A DNA stretch of 11,824 nt. Source: a virus. Positions 1 through 11,824 of the stretch are shown in pieces. The notes beneath the pieces were generated by a model that was not told the DNA's origin, searched no databases, and worked only from the letters and a program-made list of their open reading frames with translations. The stretch lies in the UHGV virus genome UHGV-1586438. One strand, given 5' to 3'. Position numbers and translations under genes: made by a program. The stretch's first letter is position 1. Each line of letters begins with the position of its first letter.

Positions 1-315
1 ATTACTGACATGCAGATGCGTCAGCGTGATGTTGCTGCGCTCGATGCAAAATACACGAAGGAGTTAGCTGATGCGAAAGCTGAAAATGATGTTCTGCGTG
101 ATGATGTTGCCGCTGGTCGTCGTCGGTTGCACATCAAAGCAGTCTGTCAGTCAGTGCGTGAAGCCACCACCGCCTCCGGCGTGGATAATGCAGCCTCCCC
201 CCGACTGGCAGACACCGCTGAACGGGATTATTTCACCCTCCGGGAACGACTGGTAATGATGCAGGCCCAACTTGAAGGTGCTCAGCAATACATAACCGAG
301 CAGTGTTTAAAGTAA
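1..315 (+). CDS. Rz: Phage i-spanin Rz (inner-membrane spanin), 5'-truncated by the window edge
   Basis: Frame 1 is open from base 1 (ITD MQMRQRDVAALDAKYTKELADAKAEND...) to TAA at 313-315. The translation matches my recollection of the C-terminal two thirds of phage lambda Rz almost residue for residue. It contains an embedded +1-frame Rz1-like ORF, the hallmark of Rz/Rz1 cassettes. The N-terminus lies outside the window. Confidence 0.85.
   Translation: MTDMQMRQRDVAALDAKYTKELADAKAENDVLRDDVAAGRRRLHIKAVCQSVREATTASGVDNAASPRLADTAERDYFTLRERLVMMQAQLEGAQQYITEQCLK
71..256 (+). CDS. Rz1: Phage o-spanin Rz1 (outer-membrane lipoprotein), embedded out of frame within Rz
   Basis: 61-aa ORF wholly inside Rz in the +1 frame. 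It has a signal peptide ending in a lipobox-like LVVVGC (Cys for lipidation) followed by a proline-rich stretch (PPPPPAWIMQPPPDWQTP), which is the lambda Rz1 architecture. Confidence 0.8.
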   Translation: MRKLKMMFCVMMLPLVVVGCTSKQSVSQCVKPPPPPAWIMQPPPDWQTPLNGIISPSGNDW

Positions 316-452
316 AATCTTAACTACAATATGATTCATTTTGATGATTGTTTCATAAGGAACAGTGAAGTAAGATCTAAGAGGAGTTAAATTTTATACA
401 GTATAATCATAATATTGCAGCAAGGTGGTTATAATTGAAAGAATATTTAGAT
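316..452 (+). promoter_or_regulatory. AT-rich intergenic region upstream of trkG; candidate promoter/RBS region
   Basis: 137-bp AT-rich non-coding gap between the Rz stop and the trkG ATG. TATAAT hexamers occur at 402-407 and 430-435 but neither has a convincing -35 partner, and no strong Shine-Dalgarno precedes the ATG at 453. Exact promoter position is not resolvable by eye. Confidence 0.25.
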
Positions 453-1910
453 ATGAATACATCTCATGTAAGAGTTGTTACTCATATGTGTGGGTTCCTG
501 GTTTGGCTCTATAGTCTTTCAATGTTGCCACCAATGGTTGTAGCATTGTTTTATAAAGAAAAAAGCCTGTTCGTTTTCTTTATAACTTTCGTTATATTTT
601 TTTGCATTGGTGGCGGAGCGTGGTATACAACTAAGAAATCTGGCATTCAATTACGTACCCGTGATGGGTTTATTATAATTGTAATGTTTTGGATTTTGTT
701 TTCTGTTATTAGTGCATTCCCTTTATGGATTGACTCAGAACTTAATTTAACGTTCATTGATGCTCTGTTTGAAGGGGTTTCTGGAATAACAACAACAGGA
801 GCAACTGTAATTGATGATGTTAGTTCATTACCTCGGGCAATTTTGTACTATCGGTCACAGTTAAATTTTATAGGTGGTTTAGGAGTTATTGTTCTGGCGG
901 TTGCTGTATTGCCATTATTGGGTATTGGTGGTGCAAAGCTTTATCAGTCAGAAATGCCGGGGCCATTTAAGGATGACAAACTCACTCCCCGCCTGGCCGA
1001 TACGTCACGGACACTGTGGATAACTTATTCTTTATTAGGTATTGCTTGTATTGTCTGTTATAGACTTGCAGGAATGCCTTTGTTTGATGCTATTTGTCAC
1101 GGGATTTCCACAGTTTCGCTTGGTGGTTTCTCAACTCATAGCGAGAGTATCGGATATTTTAATAACTATTTGGTTGAGCTGGTGGCTGGTTCTTTTTCCC
1201 TGCTATCGGCTTTCAACTTCACTCTTTGGTATATTGTTATTAGCAGGAAAACGATAAAACCTTTAATCAGAGATATTGAACTTCGTTTCTTTCTGTTAAT
1301 AGCCTTAGGGGTGATCATTGTTACCTCTTTCCAGGTCTGGCATATAGGTATGTATGACTTGCATGGAAGTTTTATTCATTCGTTTTTTCTTGCCAGCTCC
1401 ATGCTCACTGATAATGGTTTAGCTACGCAAGATTATGCAAGTTGGCCCACGCACACGATAGTGTTTTTGCTGTTGTCAAGTTTCTTTGGGGGATGTATAG
1501 GTTCAACTTGTGGTGGAATTAAGTCACTTCGATTTCTTATACTTTTCAAACAAAGCAAACACGAGATAAATCAGCTTTCTCATCCCAGAGCGTTGTTGAG
1601 TGTAAATGTAGGAGGGAAGATAGTTACAGATCGTGTAATGAGGTCTGTATGGAGTTTCTTTTTTCTTTATACTCTCTTCACGGTGTTTTTTATACTGGTG
1701 TTAAATGGTATGGGATATGATTTTCTTACATCATTTGCAACAGTGGCTGCATGTATTAATAATATGGGATTAGGTTTTGGGGCTACTGCATCGTCATTCG
1801 GAGTGCTTAATGACATTGCAAAATGTTTAATGTGCATAGCTATGATTCTTGGTCGCCTTGAAATTTATCCTGTTATTATATTGTTTTCAGGTTTTTTTTG
1901 GCGCTCCTAA
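453..1910 (+). CDS. trkG: TrkH/TrkG-family K+ uptake membrane protein (prophage moron)
   Basis: 485-aa polytopic membrane protein from ATG 453; the track's 435 start is a TTG six codons upstream. It shows TrkH-family signatures: repeated pore-loop glycine motifs (GVSGITTTGATV, LGGFSTH, ATQDYASWP), the EMPGPFKDDKLTPRLADTSRTLW segment, and FGGCIGSTCGGIKSLRFLILFKQ. N-terminus MNTSHVRVV and length match my recollection of E. coli K-12 TrkG, which sits immediately downstream of the Rz/Rz1 homologues in the Rac prophage. The gene is markedly more AT-rich than its neighbours. Confidence 0.9.
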   Translation: MNTSHVRVVTHMCGFLVWLYSLSMLPPMVVALFYKEKSLFVFFITFVIFFCIGGGAWYTTKKSGIQLRTRDGFIIIVMFWILFSVISAFPLWIDSELNLTFIDALFEGVSGITTTGATVIDDVSSLPRAILYYRSQLNFIGGLGVIVLAVAVLPLLGIGGAKLYQSEMPGPFKDDKLTPRLADTSRTLWITYSLLGIACIVCYRLAGMPLFDAICHGISTVSLGGFSTHSESIGYFNNYLVELVAGSFSLLSAFNFTLWYIVISRKTIKPLIRDIELRFFLLIALGVIIVTSFQVWHIGMYDLHGSFIHSFFLASSMLTDNGLATQDYASWPTHTIVFLLLSSFFGGCIGSTCGGIKSLRFLILFKQSKHEINQLSHPRALLSVNVGGKIVTDRVMRSVWSFFFLYTLFTVFFILVLNGMGYDFLTSFATVAACINNMGLGFGATASSFGVLNDIAKCLMCIAMILGRLEIYPVIILFSGFFWRS

Positions 1911-1996
1911 TATATGGCTGATTTATAATTGTGAGTTTAATATTATGTTGACTCACTCATTGATCCAATACCTAACTTTACCAGCAACCCCTCCGT

Positions 1997-2030
1997 CCCC
2001 AGTAGCACTGGCTGCTGGGGTGCGTTTTAT
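1997..2030 (+). terminator. Candidate intrinsic terminator downstream of trkG
   Basis: Hairpin CCCCAGTAGC (1997-2006) / loop ACTG / GCTGCTGGGG (2011-2020), a 10-bp stem with one G-U pair, followed by TGCGTTTTATT. The U-tract is interrupted, so efficiency is uncertain. Confidence 0.4.
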
Positions 2031-2047
2031 TCATAAAGCAAGGCTGT

Positions 2048-2839
2048 ATGAGCGAGAAATTAAAGATAGTCTATCGCCCATTACAAGAATTGTCACCGTA
2101 TGCGCACAACGCCAGGACGCACAGCCCTGAGCAGGTGGCACAACTGGTAGAAAGTATTAAGCAATTCGGCTGGACTAATCCGGTGCTGATTGACGAAAAG
2201 GGCGAAATTATTGCGGGTCACGGTCGTGTTATGGCGGCTGAAATGCTCAAAATGGATTCTGTTCCGGTCATTGTTCTGTCTGGCCTGACGGATGAGCAGA
2301 AAAAGGCGTACCGCCTGGCAGATAATCGCCTGCCGATGAATGCTGGCTGGGATGAAGATCTGTTGCGGATGGAGCTGTCGGACCTAATCAATGCTGATTT
2401 TGATGTCTCCCTGACAGGCTTCATCCCGACAGAAATTGATGAACTGTTGACGGATGTTTTGCCCGGTACAGGAAATGAGGAGGAGCCGTATACGACGAAA
2501 ATTGATACGCCTGTTTATGAGCCGTCGGGCGGTAAACCGGATATCAGTGAACTGTACGACGATACGAAAACTCAGGAGCTGATCAGCCGGATACGTTCGG
2601 CGTCCCTTGAGCCTGATATTGAGAAATTCCTCCTGTGTGCGGCAGAACGTCACACGGTGTTTAATTTCAGCAGAATTGCGGACTATTACGCTCACGCCCC
2701 CTCTGAAATTCAGTGTTTTTTCGAGGAGTCGGCGCTGGTGATCATTGATTATCAGCAGGCTATTGAAAATGGATTTGTCCGGATGACGCAGCGCATGGTG
2801 GAGATCATGCATGGTGGTGAGGAGGAGGAATATGCGTGA
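2048..2839 (+). CDS. ParB N-terminal domain (ParB/sulfiredoxin-like nuclease) protein with an uncharacterised C-terminal half
   Basis: 263-aa ORF with AAGG 5 nt upstream of the ATG. The N-terminal ~100 aa (LQELSPYAHNARTH...PVLIDEKGEIIAGHGRVMAA...VIVL) has the ParB-N/Srx pattern, including a GxGR-type motif. The acidic C-terminal part is unassigned. Position (after lysis genes, before terminase) is typical for phage ParB-like proteins. The K-12 Rac gene ynaK occupies the equivalent position but is much shorter. Confidence 0.7.
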   Translation: MSEKLKIVYRPLQELSPYAHNARTHSPEQVAQLVESIKQFGWTNPVLIDEKGEIIAGHGRVMAAEMLKMDSVPVIVLSGLTDEQKKAYRLADNRLPMNAGWDEDLLRMELSDLINADFDVSLTGFIPTEIDELLTDVLPGTGNEEEPYTTKIDTPVYEPSGGKPDISELYDDTKTQELISRIRSASLEPDIEKFLLCAAERHTVFNFSRIADYYAHAPSEIQCFFEESALVIIDYQQAIENGFVRMTQRMVEIMHGGEEEEYA

Positions 2840-3764
2840 TGATTTTTGCGCCTTTATTCTGACTCACGGGCGACCGGACAAAGTTCTGACTTACCGGACG
2901 TTGCGTCGTGCTGGCTATACCGGGAAAATTTTTATCGTTGTTGATGATGAAGATAAGACACGGAATCAGTACATGGCTGAATTTGGTGAACAGGTGCTGG
3001 TGTTTTCCAAAGCCGATATCGCCAGTCGTTTTGACGAAGCCGATAATTTCTGTGACCGCCGCTCAATTTTTTACGCCCGTAATGCCTGTTTCGACCTGGC
3101 AAAACTGGTCGGGTGTAAATACTTCATTCAGCTCGATGATGATTATCACGAGTTCCAGTTTCGGGTGGATCGCAACTATGACCAGGCCTATTTTCCGATA
3201 AGGAAACTGGATGCGATCCTTTCTGAAATGCTGGCGTACTACGAATCAATACCTGCTCTTTCCATCGCTATGTCGCAGGGCGGGGATTTTCTTGGTGACA
3301 ATGGCGGCCATGCTTCGTGGGTGAAACGCAAGGCAATGAACAGCTTTATCTGTTCGGTTGATCGACCGTTCTCATTCATGGGGCGCATTAACGAGGATGT
3401 GAATACGTACACGAATCTCGGTCGCTGTGGTGAATTGTTTATGACGATCGGTGCTGTCCAGTTAGGGCAGAAACAGACGCAGAAAAACAGCGGTGGAATG
3501 ACCGAGCTGTATCTGGATTCCGGAACCTACGTTAAAAGTTTTTACTCCGTCATGTATGCGCCGTCGTGCGTAAAAATCTCACTGATGGGTGCCAGCCATA
3601 AACGCATTCACCATCAGGTCACCTGGAACAACGCTGCAGTAAAAATCCTTCACGAAAAATACAGGAAGAAGACACCCTGCATATCAATGGGGGTGACAAA
3701 TGATTCCGTATTCGAAAGTCGAGTCTCTGGCAGCGTGCCGGATGACTGCACAACAAATCGCTGA
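2832..3764 (+). CDS. GT-A-fold glycosyltransferase-like protein (DxD motif); substrate unknown
   Basis: 310-aa ORF starting at ATG 2832, with GGAGGAGGAA immediately upstream and an 8-nt overlap (ATGCGTGA) with the ParB-like stop, implying translational coupling. Motif order resembles GT-A/GT2 enzymes: FILTHGRPD (beta1), IFIVVDDEDKT (acidic DD motif), FIQLDDDYHEF (DxD). The assignment is motif-based inference only. Confidence 0.6.
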   Translation: MRDDFCAFILTHGRPDKVLTYRTLRRAGYTGKIFIVVDDEDKTRNQYMAEFGEQVLVFSKADIASRFDEADNFCDRRSIFYARNACFDLAKLVGCKYFIQLDDDYHEFQFRVDRNYDQAYFPIRKLDAILSEMLAYYESIPALSIAMSQGGDFLGDNGGHASWVKRKAMNSFICSVDRPFSFMGRINEDVNTYTNLGRCGELFMTIGAVQLGQKQTQKNSGGMTELYLDSGTYVKSFYSVMYAPSCVKISLMGASHKRIHHQVTWNNAAVKILHEKYRKKTPCISMGVTNDSVFESRVSGSVPDDCTTNR

Positions 3765-3951
3765 CGTTCTGGATGTTGATCTGAACCGACTGAAAGAAAA
3801 TCGGGAAGCAATGACAGATTTTTATGCGGCCATCCGTAAGGGCAGAGCGAAAGGTGAAGCCGAGTTACGAGCGGCATTGTTTAAGCTTGCCAGAAAAGGG
3901 GATGCCTTTGCTCTGCGCGAACTACTCAGGGTGGATAAAAATCAGGACTAA
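3700..3951 (+). CDS. Small HTH-like protein of unknown function, immediately upstream of terS
   Basis: 83-aa ORF with GGGGGTGA 5 nt upstream of ATG 3700. It is predicted helical with a helix-turn-helix-like stretch (MTAQQIADVLDVDLNRL) and a basic C-terminus. Its stop (3949-3951) is 3 nt before the terS ATG. It overlaps the last 65 nt of the GT-like gene, so the start is uncertain; an alternative ATG lies at 3742. Confidence 0.5.
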   Translation: MIPYSKVESLAACRMTAQQIADVLDVDLNRLKENREAMTDFYAAIRKGRAKGEAELRAALFKLARKGDAFALRELLRVDKNQD

Positions 3952-3954
3952 CTG

Positions 3955-5049
3955 ATGAGCAGACCGGACTGGGGGGCGTTGCAGCAGGAGTATATTGCTG
4001 AATACACCCGCTCCGGTATATCTCCGGTGGCATGGTGTGAAGCAAGGGGACTGAATTACGCAACAGCCCGTCGTTACATCAAAAAAACTCCGAAAAATGC
4101 GCAGACAGAAATGTGCAAAACTGCGCAAAAAAGTGCGCAGAAAAAATCTGCGCAGACTGCACAAAAGCGGAACGAAAAATCTCAGGAAAAAAAGCCAGTA
4201 TTCGATGCGGGCCTGAATGAGGGCGACGCGGAGGAATTTTCGTTCTGTCCCGATGAATTCGGCATTTCTGACCAGCAGGCTAAGTTTGCGATGCTTGTTG
4301 CTCAGGGTAAAAAGCCGACAGAGGCGTACCGACTAGCCGGTTATGAGGGGCAAGGTGCGACAGCTAACAGCAACGCCAGTCGTATGCTTAGAAATGCCAG
4401 GGTTTTTCGCGCTATCAGCTACTTCCGCAATCAGTACCAGAAACGCTATACCGCAGACCTGGATTTACTAGTGAGTCAGTTGATGGCTATTGTCCTGGCC
4501 GACCCCAATCAGCTTGCACAATTTCGCCGTGTTAACTGCCGTTATTGCTGGGGCGAGAATCATCTCTACCAGTGGCGCGATATAGCAGAATTCGACAAGG
4601 CAGCGGCGCAGGCTTCCAGAGATGGCAAACCCGAACCGGAATATGGAGGCCTCGGCTTTGTTGATAACGCCATACCCAATCCGGACTGCCCGAAGTGCTG
4701 CGGTGAGGGAACGGGACAGCTTTATATGGCTGATACCACTCTGCTTGATGGGGATGCGCGGCAATTATATGCAGGGGCAAAATTCGGAAAATTCGGCGTT
4801 GAGATCCTGCTGGAGGATAAGGCTGCCGCCCGGCGTGAATTGTTGCGTTTGTTTTCTGCTGGCGGGGCTTTATGTGCAGATAAACGGCTACAGGAACTGG
4901 AAATTGAACGGCGCAGAATGGAAAACCAGAAGCTGCGCAAAGAGATCGAAACGGTGGAAGATAATGAACATCCCCAGCCTGTGGCGATCAATATTAATGT
5001 GGTTGATGCCAGAGTAAGGAGTGATGAAGATGATCTCTCCGACGCTTAA
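3955..5049 (+). CDS. Terminase small subunit (Terminase_2/P27-like core with N-terminal HTH extension)
   Basis: 364-aa ORF with AGGA 7 nt upstream. It has an N-terminal HTH-like region (GISPVAWCEARGLNYATARRYIKK), a low-complexity xAQK linker, a core resembling the Terminase_2 signature (QQAKFAMLVAQGKKPTEAYRLAGYEG...SNASRMLRNARV), paired CxxC motifs and a C-terminal coiled-coil-like segment. It lies directly upstream of, and overlaps, the terminase large subunit gene. Confidence 0.75.
   Translation: MSRPDWGALQQEYIAEYTRSGISPVAWCEARGLNYATARRYIKKTPKNAQTEMCKTAQKSAQKKSAQTAQKRNEKSQEKKPVFDAGLNEGDAEEFSFCPDEFGISDQQAKFAMLVAQGKKPTEAYRLAGYEGQGATANSNASRMLRNARVFRAISYFRNQYQKRYTADLDLLVSQLMAIVLADPNQLAQFRRVNCRYCWGENHLYQWRDIAEFDKAAAQASRDGKPEPEYGGLGFVDNAIPNPDCPKCCGEGTGQLYMADTTLLDGDARQLYAGAKFGKFGVEILLEDKAAARRELLRLFSAGGALCADKRLQELEIERRRMENQKLRKEIETVEDNEHPQPVAININVVDARVRSDEDDLSDA
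4098..4166 (+). repeat. Six phased direct repeats of TG(C/T)(G/A)CA(G/A)A inside terS; candidate pac / TerS-binding site
   Basis: Copies begin at 4098 (TGCGCAGA), 4112 (TGTGCAAA), 4122 (TGCGCAAA), 4134 (TGCGCAGA), 4149 (TGCGCAGA) and 4158 (TGCACAAA), with 9-15 bp spacing. They coincide with the low-complexity peptide TAQKSAQKKSAQTAQK. Confidence 0.5.
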
Positions 5050-6331
5050 TGTGCCTCAGGCGCGATTTCTTTCAATGCCCCATAAATTTAAAGCCTATAT
5101 TGCTGGTTTTGGCTCGGGCAAAACATGGGTTGGGTGTGGCGGCATATGCAAGGGGATTTGGGAGCATCCAGGTATAAATCAGGGATATTTTGCGCCAACG
5201 TATCCCCAAATTCGCGATATTTTTTACCCTACAGTGGAAGAAGTTGCTGCTGACTGGGGATTGAACGTAAAAATTAATGAGGGAAATAAAGAGGTTCACT
5301 TTTATTACGGACGCCAGTATCGGGGAACCACTATCTGCAGATCGATGGAGAAGCCACAAACGATCGTCGGTTTCAAAATTGGTAATGCGTTGGTGGATGA
5401 ACTGGACATTTTGCCGAAGGAAAAAGCCAGAACGGCGTGGCGCAAGATAATTGCACGTATGCGTTATAAGATTGATGGACTTCGCAACGGTATTGACGTT
5501 ACAACCACGCCGGAAGGATTCAAATTTGTCTACGAGCAGTTTGTTAAAGCCGTGCGTGAAAAAACAGAGCTGGCCTCACTGTATGGTCTGGTGCAGGCAT
5601 CTACTTTCGATAATGAAAAGAACCTGCCAGCAGATTACATTCCTTCGCTTCTTGAATCATACCCTCCAGAGCTGATTAAAGCCTATCTTCGAGGACAGTT
5701 TACTAACCTGACAAGTGGTACTGTTTACCATCAGTTTGACCGGAAACTGAATAATTGCGAAGAAGTGGAGCAGCCAGGGGAGCCGATTTATATTGGGATG
5801 GATTTTAACGTTGGAAAGATGGCGGGAATCGTCCATGTGCTGCGTTTGGGGCTTCCATGTGCGGTAACTGAAATCATCAATGCCTACGATACGCCGGATA
5901 TGATCCGCATCATTAAAGAACGCTTCTGGCTGTATGATGGGAATGATTACCGGAAAGTGAGGGAAATTTATATTTATCCAGATGCTTCCGGGGATTCCAG
6001 AAAATCAAGTAACGCAAGTACGACGGATATAGCCCAGCTTAAGCAGGCTGGTTTTAACGTTGTGGTGAACAGCTCGAACCCGCCAGTAAAAGATCGCGTT
6101 AACTCAATGAATGCAATGTTCTGCAATGCCAATGGTGAGCGTCGCTATAAAGTTAATGTGAAGCGTTGCCCGTTATATGCCGAATCTCTGGAGCAACAGG
6201 TCTGGGATGAGAAGGGGGAGCCTGATAAAAAATCTGGCAATGATCACCCGAATGATGCCGGAGGTTATTTCATCGTTAAGCAATTCCCTATTGTCAAACC
6301 GACCGGAAGAGTCACATCACTTCGGATTTAA
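5030..6331 (+). CDS. Terminase large subunit (ATPase/nuclease)
   Basis: 433-aa ORF from ATG 5030, with AAGGAG at 5016-5021 (8-nt spacing); the track's 5021 start is a GTG too close to the SD. N-terminal Walker A P-loop (AGFGSGKT), acidic Walker B-like stretch (NALVDELD), size and position between terS and portal all fit. The start overlaps the terS 3' end by 20 nt. Confidence 0.85.
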   Translation: MISPTLNVPQARFLSMPHKFKAYIAGFGSGKTWVGCGGICKGIWEHPGINQGYFAPTYPQIRDIFYPTVEEVAADWGLNVKINEGNKEVHFYYGRQYRGTTICRSMEKPQTIVGFKIGNALVDELDILPKEKARTAWRKIIARMRYKIDGLRNGIDVTTTPEGFKFVYEQFVKAVREKTELASLYGLVQASTFDNEKNLPADYIPSLLESYPPELIKAYLRGQFTNLTSGTVYHQFDRKLNNCEEVEQPGEPIYIGMDFNVGKMAGIVHVLRLGLPCAVTEIINAYDTPDMIRIIKERFWLYDGNDYRKVREIYIYPDASGDSRKSSNASTTDIAQLKQAGFNVVVNSSNPPVKDRVNSMNAMFCNANGERRYKVNVKRCPLYAESLEQQVWDEKGEPDKKSGNDHPNDAGGYFIVKQFPIVKPTGRVTSLRI

Positions 6332-6333
6332 TT

Positions 6334-7740
6334 ATGGCTGATATATCAACACCCAACCTCGACTATAACGATATGCTGGAGGCGTGGGATATTAACGACG
6401 CACTGATGGGCGGTACGCTTGAAATGCGCAGGCAGGGGGAAAATTATCTCCCAAAATGGCCTAACGAAGATGAAGACGCTTATAAAAAACGCCTGTCTGT
6501 GGCTACGCTACTTCCTGTGTATGAAGAAAGCATCAAGCAAAATATTGGGCGCATATTTGCAGAGCCGACAGTATTGAGTGAGGAAACGCCGGCAAAAATC
6601 AGGGAATATGCAGAAAATATCGACATGGAGGGGAGCCGACTGGATGTGTGGGCGCAGCAATTTTTCAGCCTCGCATTTCAGTATGGTGTGGCACATGCGC
6701 TGGTGGACTATCCACGAACGGATATGAAAGAGATTCGTACAAAAGCCGATGAAAACGCGACCGGTGGTCGTCCGTACGTTACGATGCTGAATCCACGCCA
6801 GGTTATTGGATGGAAATCGAAAGTTGAAAAAGGGAAAGTTGTTCTCACTGATTTGCGTATAAAAGAGGTCATCATTATTGATGGTGATGATTTCGGGCAG
6901 AAGAAGGTGGAGCAGATCCGCCATATTATGCCCCGTCGAGTTGAAATTTATCGACGTAGCGAAGGCACTAATGGCGAATCTGTCTGGACGCTTCATGAGT
7001 CATGGAATACCAGCCGTGATGATATTCCTCTGGTAACACTGTACACGAAGAAAACAGGATTTATGCGTGGTACACCGCCATTGCATAATCTTGGCTTGCT
7101 GAATATCAAGCACTGGCAAAGCCAGAGCGAGCAGGACAATATTCTTCATGTTACCCGCGTTCCATTGCTGGTGGCCTACGGGCTGGACAGGAATGAAGAA
7201 CTGACGGTTGGTGCATCCACCGCTACGATTTTTGAGGACAGAACAAAAAATGGCCTCGAATATGTTGAACATAGTGGCGCAGCGATAGAATCTGGCGAAA
7301 CATCACTTGAGAAGCTGGAAAATCAGATGCGTCATGCCGGCGCTAAACTTCTGCGTGCTGAAAATACATCCACCAAATCTGTTGATCAGACTAATGAAGA
7401 GCGAATGCAGGAAAACTCGCCGCTTTATACAATGGCGAACTCCCTCGAAGATGCCCTCGATAATATTCTCCAGATAATGGCGGAATGGATCGGAGAGAGT
7501 TGCGGTGGCAATGTGGATGTGCGCACTGAACTGGATGTATCTGCCCAGGTGTTTGACTCATCCTCCGCGCTGGCTGTTCAGTCATTGCGTCAGGGCGGTG
7601 ATATACGTCAGATTGATGCGGTTCGGGTGTTGCAGGCGTTGAAATTTATCGATCAGGATTCCCGTCCAGAGGAAGTGATCGATGAATTAAAAAATCAGAG
7701 TGTAATGCTGATGGAAATCAATGATGCAAACCGTGAATGA
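6334..7740 (+). CDS. Portal protein
   Basis: 468-aa ORF beginning 3 nt after the terL stop, with an acidic C-terminal region. The call is by conserved synteny (terL then portal then MuF-like protein) and size; no diagnostic motif is visible by eye. Confidence 0.7.
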   Translation: MADISTPNLDYNDMLEAWDINDALMGGTLEMRRQGENYLPKWPNEDEDAYKKRLSVATLLPVYEESIKQNIGRIFAEPTVLSEETPAKIREYAENIDMEGSRLDVWAQQFFSLAFQYGVAHALVDYPRTDMKEIRTKADENATGGRPYVTMLNPRQVIGWKSKVEKGKVVLTDLRIKEVIIIDGDDFGQKKVEQIRHIMPRRVEIYRRSEGTNGESVWTLHESWNTSRDDIPLVTLYTKKTGFMRGTPPLHNLGLLNIKHWQSQSEQDNILHVTRVPLLVAYGLDRNEELTVGASTATIFEDRTKNGLEYVEHSGAAIESGETSLEKLENQMRHAGAKLLRAENTSTKSVDQTNEERMQENSPLYTMANSLEDALDNILQIMAEWIGESCGGNVDVRTELDVSAQVFDSSSALAVQSLRQGGDIRQIDAVRVLQALKFIDQDSRPEEVIDELKNQSVMLMEINDANRE

Positions 7741-8836
7741 ACGGCTGCGTGATGAATCAATTGCTCATGCAGTCTGGATATCCCGCTATAGCACTGGCGT
7801 GGCTGCCAGAATGGTGAAAATACTGAATGACAGCGATGCGGAACTTACTGCTCGCCTGCTGATAGCACTGGACAGCCTCGATCCAGGTAATTTTACCGTT
7901 AAGCGCCTGGAGTCACTTCTGGCGAGCGTCAGAAAGGTTAACCGCACTGCTATTAACAGCATGTTTACCAGTCTCTCCGGAGAGCTGAACGAGCTGGCAA
8001 TTTATGAGGCTGGTTATCAGTTAAGTCTGTTTGATTCTATGCTACCTGATTTTGTTGCTGATGTTCACCCTCTGGTTGGTATCTCTCCTGATGCACTTTA
8101 TGCCGCTGCAATGGCGCGACCATTCCAGGGACGACTGCTCAGTGAGTGGGCCTCAGATCTTGAGGCGGATCGGCTCAGACGCATAACAAATACAGTGCGT
8201 CAGGGTTTTTTGCTGGGGGATACCAATGAGCAGATCGCAAGAAAAATTCGGGGACATGTCAGTAAGGGATTTCAGGATGGTGCATTGCAGATGAGCCGGG
8301 CTAATGCGGCCAGCATTGCAAAAACAGCGGTTGGGCATCTTGCTGCTACTGCCCGTGAGAGTTTTGCCAGCGCGAATAATGATTTGATTAAGGGTAAGCA
8401 ATGGTTATCAACGCTTGATAATCGTACTACGCCACAATGTCGAATCAGGGATCGCCTCAAATATACGCTGAATAATAAACCTGTAGGTCACAGCGTGCCT
8501 TATTTGCAGGGGCCGGGAAAAATTCATTTCTGCTGCCGCTCAACGGAAACGTTCATTCTGAAATCAGCGAAGGAACTGGGTATTGATGTTCGCGATATTT
8601 CCCCGGCTGAGCGGGCCAGCATGGATGGCGTGGTGGCCGGAGATACAACCTACAGGGAATGGTTTTTGCGTCAGCCTTACACCAGACAAAAACAGATTGT
8701 GGGGGAAACCCGAGCAAAGCTGATTCGGGATGGTGGTATGTCGCCAGATGAATTTTACACCGATAAAGGCGAATGGCTGACGCTGAAGCAGCTCCGTGAG
8801 CGTGATGCACAGGTATTCAGAAAAGCAGGGATTTAA
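7721..8836 (+). CDS. Head morphogenesis / minor head protein (SPP1 gp7 / Mu F-like)
   Basis: 371-aa ORF overlapping the portal 3' end by 20 nt; start is either ATG 7721 or 7724. Position immediately after portal and size fit MuF-family proteins. The call is synteny-based. Confidence 0.6.
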   Translation: MMQTVNERLRDESIAHAVWISRYSTGVAARMVKILNDSDAELTARLLIALDSLDPGNFTVKRLESLLASVRKVNRTAINSMFTSLSGELNELAIYEAGYQLSLFDSMLPDFVADVHPLVGISPDALYAAAMARPFQGRLLSEWASDLEADRLRRITNTVRQGFLLGDTNEQIARKIRGHVSKGFQDGALQMSRANAASIAKTAVGHLAATARESFASANNDLIKGKQWLSTLDNRTTPQCRIRDRLKYTLNNKPVGHSVPYLQGPGKIHFCCRSTETFILKSAKELGIDVRDISPAERASMDGVVAGDTTYREWFLRQPYTRQKQIVGETRAKLIRDGGMSPDEFYTDKGEWLTLKQLRERDAQVFRKAGI

Positions 8837-8855
8837 ATAAATCATTTATTACAAC

Positions 8856-8883
8856 AGGCTACCTTCGGGTGGCCTTTTTTATT
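8856..8883 (+). terminator. Intrinsic terminator between head-morphogenesis and scaffold genes
   Basis: AGGCTACC (8856-8863) / UUCG tetraloop (8864-8867) / GGTGGCCT (8868-8875), an 8-bp stem with one G-U pair, running into TTTTTTATT (8875-8883). It sits 20 nt after the stop at 8836. Confidence 0.6.
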
Positions 8884-8940
8884 GCTGCGATCCGGATGGT
8901 GAGCAGCGTAACTGTCGGAAGACTTAAACCAGGTACTAAT

Positions 8941-9705
8941 ATGAAACTGAAAACGGTCGAGATTAACGGAAAACAATACGCAGAAATTGATACTGCTGGC
9001 CTGCCAGTTTATGTGCACGACGATGGTAAAGAAATTGGCTTCGATGCACCGCTGGCGACAAAAAAAATTACAGAGCTTAATGGCGAGGCAAAAAATCATC
9101 GCCTGGCTAAAGAAGCTGCAGAGGAAAAACTGGCTAAGTTTGCCGCTATCGAAGACCCGAAGAAGGCGATCGAGGCACTGGAAATGCTGTCAAAAATCGA
9201 CCAGAAAAAGCTGCTCGATGCGGGACAGGTTGACCAGGTTAAGGCAGAAATTACGAAAAATTTTCAGCAGCAATTAGATGAAGAAAAGCAACGCTCTCAG
9301 ATGCTGGAGAAGCAGCTTTACGATTCTATGATTGGCGGTAGTTTTGCGGGTTCAAAATATATTGCCGATAAAATTGCGATCCCGGCAGATTTATTACAAG
9401 CCCGCTTCGGGCAGGCATTCAAAGTGGAAGAAGGGAGGATCGTTGCTTATGACGCTTCCGGCAACAAAATTTATTCCCGCGCGAAGCCTGGCGAACTGGC
9501 GCAGTTTGATGAGGCGCTGGAGTTCCTTGTCGAAAATTACCCTCAGAAAGACTACATCCTGAAAGCCAGTGGCAACAATGGCGGCGGCTCCCGTCCGACA
9601 CAGCATGATATTGGTCAGAAAACGATGAAACGCTCTGCTTTTGATGCACTGGATGTTGCAGGTAAGCAAAACGCATTGAAAGACGGTATCACAATCGTTG
9701 ATTAA
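8941..9705 (+). CDS. Putative scaffolding protein
   Basis: 254-aa ORF from ATG 8941 (MKLKTVEINGK...). The track's 8869 start lies inside the terminator hairpin and is rejected. The central segment is charged and helical (EAAEEKLAKFAAIEDPKKAIEALEMLSKIDQKKLL...QQQLDEEKQRSQMLEKQLY), as expected for a scaffold, and the gene is immediately upstream of the major capsid gene. The SD is weak (AGGT); an alternative start is ATG 8896. Confidence 0.5.
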   Translation: MKLKTVEINGKQYAEIDTAGLPVYVHDDGKEIGFDAPLATKKITELNGEAKNHRLAKEAAEEKLAKFAAIEDPKKAIEALEMLSKIDQKKLLDAGQVDQVKAEITKNFQQQLDEEKQRSQMLEKQLYDSMIGGSFAGSKYIADKIAIPADLLQARFGQAFKVEEGRIVAYDASGNKIYSRAKPGELAQFDEALEFLVENYPQKDYILKASGNNGGGSRPTQHDIGQKTMKRSAFDALDVAGKQNALKDGITIVD

Positions 9706-9803
9706 CACATTTGTCAGCTTCCGGATGGGAGCTGGTGTCAGGGCTGGATAGCTCATTACTCCATCTATTCACAATTACGCAAATTTTTAAGGAATATTTA
9801 ATT

Positions 9804-10943
9804 ATGGCTGGAAATACCCTGACCGGGTTGATCTCGACTATTTATACCGCCCTGGATGTTGTATCCCGTGAGCAGGTAGGTTTTATCCCTGCGGTAGCAA
9901 AAAACGCAAAAGCTGACGCCGCAGCAAAAGATCAGACGGTAACCGCGCCAGTTGCGCCTGAGGCGAAAACCGAAGATATCGTACCGGGGCCGTCAGCTCC
10001 GAATACCGGTGATCAAAATATTGGCACTGTTGATGTAAAAATTACTAAATCCAAAATGGCACCGGTTAAATGGAATGGTGAAGAACAACTGGCTCTTGGC
10101 CCTTCAGGGACTTACAACACCATTCTGGCTGATCAGTTCAAGCAGGCTTTTCGCGCCCTTGCAAACGAGGTTGAGGCTGATCTTGGTGCGTTGTATTTCG
10201 GTGCTTCCCGCGCCGTGGGAACCGCAGGGACAACGCCGTTTGGTGTTAAAGATGATCTTTCTGATGCTGCTCTGGCTCGTCAGGTTCTGGAGGATAACGG
10301 CGCACCGACAACCGATCTGCAGATGGTGCTTGGCTCCACTGCCATTGCTAATTTGCGCGGAAAACAGTCTGTATTGTTTAAAGTGAATGAATCCGGCACT
10401 GAACAGCTACTGCGTGAGGGCGTGTTGGGGCGTCTGGAGGGATTCAATATTCACAGTTCGGCAGGTGTGAAACGAGCGCCAAAGGTTGCTGCAACTGGTT
10501 ATCTCGTGAATGGAGAGAAAAAAGAAGGCGATGTTCTTATTTCCATTGATACTGGTTCGGGGAGTATTTCTGCAGGTCAGATTGTTACGTTCGCTGGTGA
10601 TCCGAATCAGTATGTTGTGGCAGCAGCGACCAGCAATCTGATTACTCTTGCAGCGCCCGGACTGCGTCAGGATCTGGCCGATGATACTGCCATCACAGTT
10701 GTTGGGGCCTTTACGGCAAATATGGCGTTTGATCGCAACGCGTTTCTGCTGGCATCCCGTACTCCGGCAATGCCGGAAGGTGGCGATAATGCTGATGATG
10801 TAATGAATGTTACGGACCCGATTTCAGGGATTACGTTCCAGATTGCACTGTATCGTCAGTATCGCCAGGTGCGCTATGAAGTTGGACTGGCATGGGGTGT
10901 TTCATCAGTGAAGCCGGCACATGGTTGTCTGATTCTTGGTTAA
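9804..10943 (+). CDS. Major capsid protein
   Basis: 379-aa ORF from ATG 9804 with a good SD (AAGGAA at 9789-9794, 9-nt spacing). The upstream in-frame extension in the track (from 9711) has no RBS. Position after the scaffold gene, size, Gly/Ala/Thr-rich composition and a strong terminator directly downstream are all typical of a capsid gene. The structural family was not determined. Confidence 0.7.
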   Translation: MAGNTLTGLISTIYTALDVVSREQVGFIPAVAKNAKADAAAKDQTVTAPVAPEAKTEDIVPGPSAPNTGDQNIGTVDVKITKSKMAPVKWNGEEQLALGPSGTYNTILADQFKQAFRALANEVEADLGALYFGASRAVGTAGTTPFGVKDDLSDAALARQVLEDNGAPTTDLQMVLGSTAIANLRGKQSVLFKVNESGTEQLLREGVLGRLEGFNIHSSAGVKRAPKVAATGYLVNGEKKEGDVLISIDTGSGSISAGQIVTFAGDPNQYVVAAATSNLITLAAPGLRQDLADDTAITVVGAFTANMAFDRNAFLLASRTPAMPEGGDNADDVMNVTDPISGITFQIALYRQYRQVRYEVGLAWGVSSVKPAHGCLILG

Positions 10944-10953
10944 ACATTCAAAC

Positions 10954-10973
10954 GGGGCTTCGGCCCCATTTTT
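10954..10973 (+). terminator. Intrinsic terminator downstream of the major capsid gene
   Basis: GGGGC (10954-10958) / UUCG tetraloop / GCCCC (10963-10967) followed by ATTTTT (10968-10973), 11 nt after the capsid stop codon. It overlaps an alternative hairpin CCCCATT/TTT/AATGGGG (10964-10980). Confidence 0.55.
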
Positions 10974-10985
10974 AATGGGGGGCAT

Positions 10986-11162
10986 ATGGCCGGATTAACT
11001 AAAGAGCAAAGAGCACAGCGTGAAGCCGCACAAAAAACGCAAATTGAGTTAGTGGTTATGGTGACCGATTATCAGATGTTTCCCGGCGCACCAACTATCG
11101 CTAATGTTCATCCTGATGAAGTTGACAACTGGAAGGCTATGGGCTGGAAAACTCAGGAGTAA
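10986..11162 (+). CDS. Hypothetical 58-aa protein (not in the supplied ORF track)
   Basis: Hand-translated: MAGLTKEQRAQREAAQKTQIELVVMVTDYQMFPGAPTIANVHPDEVDNWKAMGWKTQE, stop TAA at 11160-11162. A G-rich SD (GGGGGG at 10977-10982) lies 3 nt upstream. It exactly fills the gap between the capsid terminator and the next gene, whose own SD (AGGAG) lies in its last codons. Confidence 0.35.
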   Translation: MAGLTKEQRAQREAAQKTQIELVVMVTDYQMFPGAPTIANVHPDEVDNWKAMGWKTQE

Positions 11163-11165
11163 CAC

Positions 11166-11561
11166 ATGATCACTTACGTGACCTGTGATGACGTTGATAA
11201 TGCGTTTGGGAACGCCTGGACGAGTGAGAACGCTAAAAATAAAGCTGTTTTAATGGCTAATGCCTGGCTTAATGGCTTCAACCTGAAAATTAACCCATCC
11301 CGTATTCCGGAAGAGGTAAAACTTGCGGGAGCATATGCAGCCAGAATTGCCTCATTCGGTAAGTTGTTTCAGCAGAAAAATGATTCTGGCGTTGTTATCA
11401 GTAAAGCCGTGTCGGCTGACGGGGTCAGTGTATCGAAATCATTTTCTGAGTTGCCAGCAAACAGCACTGCATTGCTTGAACCCGATTTACAGCTTGCGAT
11501 AGCACTGCTGAAACCGTACGGACTTAGTCGCTCACAAGTCAGGGTTGTGAGGGGGGGATAA
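11166..11561 (+). CDS. Putative head-tail connector / head completion protein
   Basis: 131-aa ORF with AGGAG 6 nt upstream of the ATG. A small protein directly after the capsid gene in a head module is typically a connector or adaptor. Its stop overlaps the next ATG (ATAATGG). The call is from synteny only. Confidence 0.5.
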   Translation: MITYVTCDDVDNAFGNAWTSENAKNKAVLMANAWLNGFNLKINPSRIPEEVKLAGAYAARIASFGKLFQQKNDSGVVISKAVSADGVSVSKSFSELPANSTALLEPDLQLAIALLKPYGLSRSQVRVVRGG

Positions 11562-11812
11562 TGGGGCTTCGTGAAGAGATTCAGTCAGAGGTTGCCGCTG
11601 CTTTTGATGAGGATTTAGCGGACGCCGTGAGTGATTTTTCTGGTTCTTACGTTACGCACCGGCACTGGGATCCTGTGACGGAAACTGGCGGCGAATCCAC
11701 CGCAATCTATACCGGGCGAGGAAATTTGAGGAGAGCGGACCTTAGTACGAGAGGACCGGGTTGGACGTACCGCTGGTGCACCTGTTGTTCTGCCAAGGGC
11801 ATAGCAGGGTAG
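11561..11812 (+). CDS. ORF of uncertain validity: phage-like N-terminal ~47 codons, remainder reads through 23S rRNA-like sequence
   Basis: ATG 11561 overlaps the stop of the preceding gene by one base. The first ~47 codons (MGLREEIQSEVAAAFDEDLADAVSDFSGSYVTHRHWDPVTETGGEST) look like ordinary coding sequence. From about 11703 the DNA matches the 23S rRNA domain VI region, so the C-terminal 'protein' (NLRRADLSTRGPGWTYRWCTCCSAKGIAG) is probably a non-biological read-through. Confidence 0.25.
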   Translation: MGLREEIQSEVAAAFDEDLADAVSDFSGSYVTHRHWDPVTETGGESTAIYTGRGNLRRADLSTRGPGWTYRWCTCCSAKGIAG

Positions 11813-11824
11813 CTAAGTACGGAC
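11703..11824 (+). rRNA. Partial 23S rRNA-like fragment (domain VI, sarcin-ricin loop region), not E. coli-type, truncated by the window end
   Basis: An exact copy of the universally conserved sarcin-ricin loop AGTACGAGAGGACCGG lies at 11734-11749. Flanks match my recollection of bacterial 23S rRNA: GGAAATTTGAG upstream, and GGACG.ACC.CTGGTG...GTTGT..TGCCAA.GGCA...GGTAGCTAA.T.CGGA downstream. About 15 or more substitutions relative to E. coli 23S over ~85 nt, some apparently paired, suggest a different bacterial lineage. The upstream boundary is approximate. Confidence 0.55.

Follow-up and report, generated by a model that had tools for sequence, protein, structure and literature searches.

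How does a piece of a bacterial 23S rRNA gene come to stand in the reading frame of a phage head gene? The question is raised by the last bases of the window, by which we mean the whole stretch of 11,824 nt analysed here, in which an ORF that starts at 11561, behind a series of phage head genes, runs into rRNA sequence. An earlier note on this DNA, made from its letters, had taken a chimeric assembly or a contaminant read to be the likeliest cause. Our analysis indicates that 11722–11824 is very probably a technical chimera that was made in vitro and kept at the end of a contig, and is not a genomic feature. The features needed for the argument are these:

1–11721, + strand: native E. coli Rac-like prophage DNA (identity to complete genomes and NCBI assemblies; annotation and PHROG)
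1–11721, gene order, first part: end of a lysis gene, trkG, ParB_N protein, TAGT glycosyltransferase, small and large terminase, portal (DUF4055)
1–11721, gene order, second part: Mu-F-like minor head protein, DUF6651 protein, P22-type major capsid, 58-aa protein, Ad1, 5′ part of Hc1
11561–11721, + strand: genuine 5′ part of Hc1, codons 1–53 and two bases of codon 54 (PHROG 161, protein alignment)
11561–11812, + strand: chimeric 83-aa ORF, 54 native Hc1 residues followed by 29 derived from the rRNA gene and a fortuitous stop (ORF list, alignment)
11705–11721, + strand: imperfect microhomology of 17–18 nt (alignment of the window, an intact prophage and three donors)
11722–11824, + strand: 23S rRNA gene fragment of foreign origin, from domain VI with the sarcin-ricin stem-loop, cut by the window end (RF02541, donor identity)
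11737, + strand: single position at which the window departs from all three donor 23S genes (G for T; a U-G pair becomes a G-G mismatch)
11744–11759, + strand: sarcin-ricin loop motif AGTACGAGAGGACCGG (one exact match, 0/200 shuffles)

Identity and donor of the rRNA fragment

When 11500–11824 was scanned with Rfam in E-value mode, the model LSU_rRNA_bacteria (RF02541) matched 11719–11824 on the + strand with 83.1 bits (E 3.4e-25; the gathering score of the model is 50 bits), and the match spans model positions 2655–2760 of 2925, its 3′ end being cut by the window. The covariance-model search which the earlier note had recommended therefore leaves the rRNA identity standing, and its bacterial 23S fragment at the 3′ end of the window is confirmed. 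The sarcin-ricin motif is present as a single exact copy and none of 200 shuffled sequences contains one; the loop had been described as perfect, which it is, and placed at 11734–11749, which is ten bases to the left of its actual position. In the cmscan alignment six of the seven pairs in the closing stem of this loop are canonical, the exception being G11737-G, and over the whole rRNA fragment only a single modelled pair is non-canonical. The fragment is genuine 23S gene sequence, from domain VI. It cannot be a functional rRNA gene: in place of a complete gene of ~2.9 kb in its operon context there are 106 of 2925 positions, and the sequence on the 5′ side is phage coding DNA. No other rRNA, 16S, 5S, tRNA or remaining part of 23S was found in the window.

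A scan of the whole window in the default gathering mode of Rfam returned no match. The filter is to blame for this miss, since a scan restricted to the region yields 83 bits. The absence of an rRNA hit on 11700–11824 had been named beforehand as the result that would speak against an rRNA fragment; such an absence does arise under default settings, wrongly, and does not arise in E-value mode. As an observation in its own right, 11719–11824 exceeds the 50-bit gathering score by a wide margin with 325 bases scanned and is nevertheless missed by the default whole-window scan, and therefore short rRNA scraps truncated at a sequence end can escape default screening.

Among 185,579 species-representative genomes only three contain the 66-mer at 11759–11824 exactly, all of them Bacillota/Clostridia (Lachnospiraceae bacterium MD329, one Bacillota MAG and one Clostridia MAG). 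Over 11722–11824 the window is identical at 102 of 103 positions to each of three donor loci (L002, L003 and L004), which are bona fide 23S genes, two of them whole and the third interrupted by the end of its locus, and in which, unlike in the window, native 23S sequence precedes the rRNA part. The 23S genes of E. coli itself are only ~74–76% identical to the fragment; we rejected an origin from E. coli 23S on account of this value of about 75%, and the fragment had rightly been called non-enterobacterial. These identities place the donor among the Clostridia, in the Lachnospiraceae or a related lineage, which we take to be of a gut-associated kind. The sole mismatch is G11737, where all three donors have T, and this base turns a U-G pair of the sarcin-ricin closing stem into a non-canonical G-G. 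No copy of a 46-mer with the G variant was found in metagenome_contigs, in a search that had no positive control for the T variant, and neither the G nor the T variant was found in viral_contigs. G11737 fits an error in a thinly covered read; it could also be a real variant of an unsampled donor, with only three species representatives matched.

We also considered a phage-borne decoy of the sarcin-ricin loop or another structured RNA. We rejected this because of the 99% identity to the 23S of living donors and the cut at the window end; moreover the fragment, folded as a stand-alone sequence, is no better than its shuffles (z = −0.54), which counts against a structured RNA. Searching the literature for phage genomes that contain rRNA fragments gave nothing relevant.

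Separately, positions 2545–2656 of NZ_AP027888.1, a 2,750-bp record annotated as 23S rRNA, are 83% identical to the window fragment. The record belongs to a ‘complete’ E. coli assembly, that of strain 2018-05-5CC, and genuine E. coli 23S copies stand at ~75%; by sequence it may be a non-E. coli 23S contaminant within this assembly.

The prophage and its interrupted head closure gene

When the whole window was compared by megablast with 5,426 complete E. coli genomes, 1–11721 was 99.9% identical in each of the ten best-listed records, and all ten whole-window matches listed stop at 11721. Matches to the terminal 325 bases occur in 737 complete E. coli genomes and in no case cover more than 80% of the query, and the 20 matches listed of these 737 all stop at 11721; with 10900–11824 as query, all 10 phage records found stop at the same base. 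Two assemblies, GCA_052850015.1 and GCA_036614495.1, have 0 mismatches in 11,721 nt and diverge from 11722 on; in the former the intact prophage lies on contig ACAVDG010000056.1. Across this point intact copies read ...GGGCGAGG|CGTGTTGACACG..., these two assemblies continuing with CGTGTTGACACG, and the window reads ...CAATCTATACCGGGCGAGG|AAATTTGAGGAGAGCGGACCTTAGTACGAGAGGACCGG.... The breakpoint is 11721|11722, with 11722 as the first base that diverges from all E. coli and phage matches listed, and the boundary at 11703 given earlier has to be moved to this position. The phage side continues natively in loci L001, L005, L006 and L007. Past 11722 intact prophages carry the rest of Hc1, followed by Neck1/tail completion, tail terminator, tail tube and tape measure genes, which is the outcome of the comparison with intact Rac-like prophages that had been proposed.

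The interrupted gene is identified through its intact homologue of 127 aa (L001:3062–3445), which matches the PHROG 161 profile ‘head closure Hc1’ with an E-value of 1.5e-28 over profile positions 1–120, the profile having about 120 positions. The gene is preceded by that of the head-tail adaptor Ad1 (11166–11561). Residues 1–54 of the window ORF at 11561–11812 are identical to those of the intact protein and the sequence is divergent after them, so that the window copy keeps only residues 1–54 and falls short of a full-length PHROG 161 match. The 83-aa ORF has no Pfam hit, and its exact chimeric product is absent from an index of 153 billion gene positions. The ORF is reliable only to codon 54. 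The earlier note had placed the join inside the ORF starting at 11561, and the breakpoint does fall within 11561–11812; its point that the fragment decides whether this final ORF can be trusted is right, since the alignment to intact Hc1 gives no ground for trusting the ORF past codon 54. Hc1 is predicted to be needed for virion assembly, and the structural module upstream of the truncated gene is otherwise fully intact and strain-identical, which we count in favour of a technical chimera.

Some features of the native part deserve a record of their own. The exact TrkG allele encoded in the window (453–1910, + strand) is uncommon, being present in 13 contigs of the 153-billion-gene index; none of these 13 contigs has the junction. 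GCA_052850015.1 and GCA_036614495.1 both carry the allele, and it could help to trace the strain or sample of origin. The interval between trkG and the terminase (2048–3764, + strand) encodes a protein of 263 aa with a ParB N-terminal domain (PF02195) and a TET-Associated Glycosyltransferase of 310 aa (PF20691, E 7.6e-35), whose family name suggests DNA base hypermodification; among the precomputed Pfam hits of the window proteins there is no match to a TET/JBP dioxygenase. The gene annotated as terminase small subunit (3955–5049, + strand) encodes 364 aa (PF03592, Terminase_2), which is long for such a role, and overlaps the start of the large-subunit gene.

Origin of the junction

The two partners resemble each other at the point where they meet. 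The phage sequence reads ATCTAT-AC-CGGGCG-AGG and the donor 23S reads ATCTAT-CA-CGGGCG-N-AGG, where N is an additional base, T, C or G depending on the donor. The match comprises 15 of 18 positions, including 3 exact nt, and the similarity needs one indel and two mismatches. Because the window carries the phage version throughout, the switch lies within or just after AGG (11719–11721). It had been held that the join shows no recognisable boundary element; this is right for mobile-element ends and repeats, and has to be amended for the imperfect microhomology. No recurrence, boundary repeat or element end was found, and microhomology alone is present at the junction. The junction-anchored alignment has a score of 11, which is reached by 1 in 15,000 random phage × 23S junctions (~7e-5), and therefore the join was guided by homology and is not a blunt or arbitrary concatenation. 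Exact identity at the junction is limited to words of 6 and 3 nt, and nowhere do a 17-kb stretch of the prophage and the 23S gene share an exact word of more than 12 nt. Thus no de Bruijn graph of usual k could have made the join, which must already have existed in a sequenced molecule. The junction was not seen in any collection searched, including the E. coli genome matches listed (of 737): a junction 37-mer is absent from viral_contigs (IMG/VR), and a junction 32-mer from metagenome_contigs (JGI metagenomes).

Several observations point to a chimeric molecule made during sample processing. The junction is private to the window, and both partners continue differently in independent natural sequences. 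The foreign segment has 103 nt, which is shorter than a typical short read, and it lies at the extreme end of the window, so that in the window sequence it is terminal and at most about one read long. Moreover, this short segment has one difference from its donors, G11737, versus 0 differences in 11,721 nt on the phage side. The preference of the earlier note for a chimeric assembly or a contaminant read is supported, with a phage side identical at 11,721 of 11,721 positions to prophages that continue normally and with a private junction. It is also narrowed: a misjoin in a k-mer graph falls away, and a chimera in the sequenced molecule takes its place, as the longest exact words common to the two partners have 6 nt at the junction and 12 nt overall.

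We infer an in vitro origin for the join, support from one or few reads, and a window end that coincides with the contig end. The microhomology suggests template switching or mispriming. A strand ending ...ATCTATACCGGGCGAGG-3′ inside Hc1 would anneal by imperfect microhomology to a donor 23S sequence ...ATCTATCACGGGCG(N)AGG, and its 3′ end would then be extended on the 23S gene of a co-resident member of the Lachnospiraceae/Clostridia, during amplification of the sample or preparation of the library; alternatively, two fragments may have been joined at the microhomology. The chimeric molecule would then have been sequenced, and if E. coli coverage runs out nearby, the foreign overhang of ~103 nt would meet no competing path and would be kept as the last bases of the contig. 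The rRNA genes of the Clostridia donors are multi-copy, and these donors plausibly share the sample with E. coli. Priming at short complementarity is a documented mark of such chimeras: in multiple displacement amplification (MDA) >70% of chimera junctions are primed at complementarity of 2–21 nt (PMC1855051), and chimeric artefact reads also arise in ordinary library preparation (PMC6344851).

A purely computational misjoin, in which sequences that were never on one molecule were joined by software, is unlikely. It could have been produced by an overlap or extension assembler, a contig extender, a gap closer, a scaffolder, read merging or concatenation of database records, and the place of the junction at the very end of the window, together with its being unique to the window, is what such a process would leave. 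A similarity of 17–18 nt could in principle attract an algorithm that is guided by homology and accepts mismatches and indels. However, exact words of 6 and 3 nt at the junction and of 12 nt anywhere are far below the usual k-mer or minimum overlap, an indel with two mismatches is unacceptable to ungapped read mergers, and blind concatenation would not hit a microhomology expected once in 15,000 junctions. We also tried to read the assembler k from the length of the foreign tail (87–88 nt after G11737, 103–106 nt from the junction), but no standard final k fits, and the clue was dropped as uninformative because both hypotheses predict termination near here.

A genuine capture in vivo is very unlikely. 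Here 23S rDNA of Lachnospiraceae/Clostridia would have been inserted into the prophage Hc1, or would have replaced the region downstream of it, by RecA-independent, microhomology-mediated illegitimate recombination in E. coli, and the head-completion function of the prophage would be inactivated. The microhomology is as expected of illegitimate recombination, but it does not discriminate a chimera from a real capture, because illegitimate recombination leaves the same signature. The stem-breaking substitution G11737 would be tolerable in a non-functional scrap of rDNA. De Bruijn assemblers break where paths multiply (PMC10914622), and a contig break is expected inside an rRNA repeat that is shared with abundant community members (PMC10914622); the terminal position is uninformative for this reason, as a real rRNA insertion also predicts a contig break nearby. 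Against a capture stand the absence of the junction from the E. coli matches listed (of 737), from IMG/VR, from the JGI metagenomes and from the gene index, and the strain-identical prophages with 0 differences in 11.7 kb that are intact at the site, which would leave room only for an extremely recent event confined to this sequence. Moreover, the foreign piece has kept 99% identity to living donors, and the window, which ends in the fragment, shows neither a second junction nor a mobile-element end or a duplication. Capture of rDNA from another phylum by a prophage gene also has a far lower prior than a library chimera. There is only a slender chance that the join is real, as a recent private inter-phylum capture of Lachnospiraceae 23S rDNA that kills the morphogenesis of a Rac-like prophage.

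Consequences and comparison with known systems

With an in vitro chimera as the preferred explanation, the value of the finding is mainly one of quality control. The last 103 bases (11722–11824) are to be trimmed, 11561–11721 is to be annotated as a 5′ partial Hc1 of a 127-aa gene, and the 83-aa ORF is not to be treated as a protein. Neither a truncated prophage nor an rRNA-carrying phage should be inferred, and a lack of tail genes is not to be inferred from the window either, because intact relatives carry them directly downstream. In large scans, rRNA scraps at contig ends could seed false calls of a ‘novel ORF’ or a ‘phage-encoded rRNA’. A real junction would amount to a documented case of E. 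coli taking up rDNA from another phylum and would bear on illegitimate recombination, with no obvious function.

Compared with known artefacts, the junction resembles the chimeras of MDA, in which unrelated templates are joined at short complementarity, and its 3 exact nt are within the reported 2–21 nt (PMC1855051). It also shares with chimeric reads made in vitro a junction that is private to one data set and a foreign part shorter than a read (PMC1855051, PMC6344851). In contrast to MDA chimeras, of which >85% are intramolecular inversions (PMC1855051), the join in the window is intermolecular, between two organisms and in direct orientation.

On the rRNA side, the fragment is like domain VI of bacterial 23S (RF02541), with positions 2655–2760 and the universal sarcin-ricin motif intact, and differs from it in that it starts abruptly inside a phage gene and covers 106 of 2925 positions. 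On the phage side, the prophage is an ordinary Rac-like element. It shares 99.9–100% identity over 1–11721 with the Rac-like lambdoid E. coli prophage that has a P22-type capsid module (strains SE11 and 7/2), and its genes stand in the same order, beginning with the lysis genes and trkG and reaching to Ad1 and Hc1; intact copies of this prophage go on with Hc1 residues 55–127 and the tail genes, whereas the window has rDNA instead.
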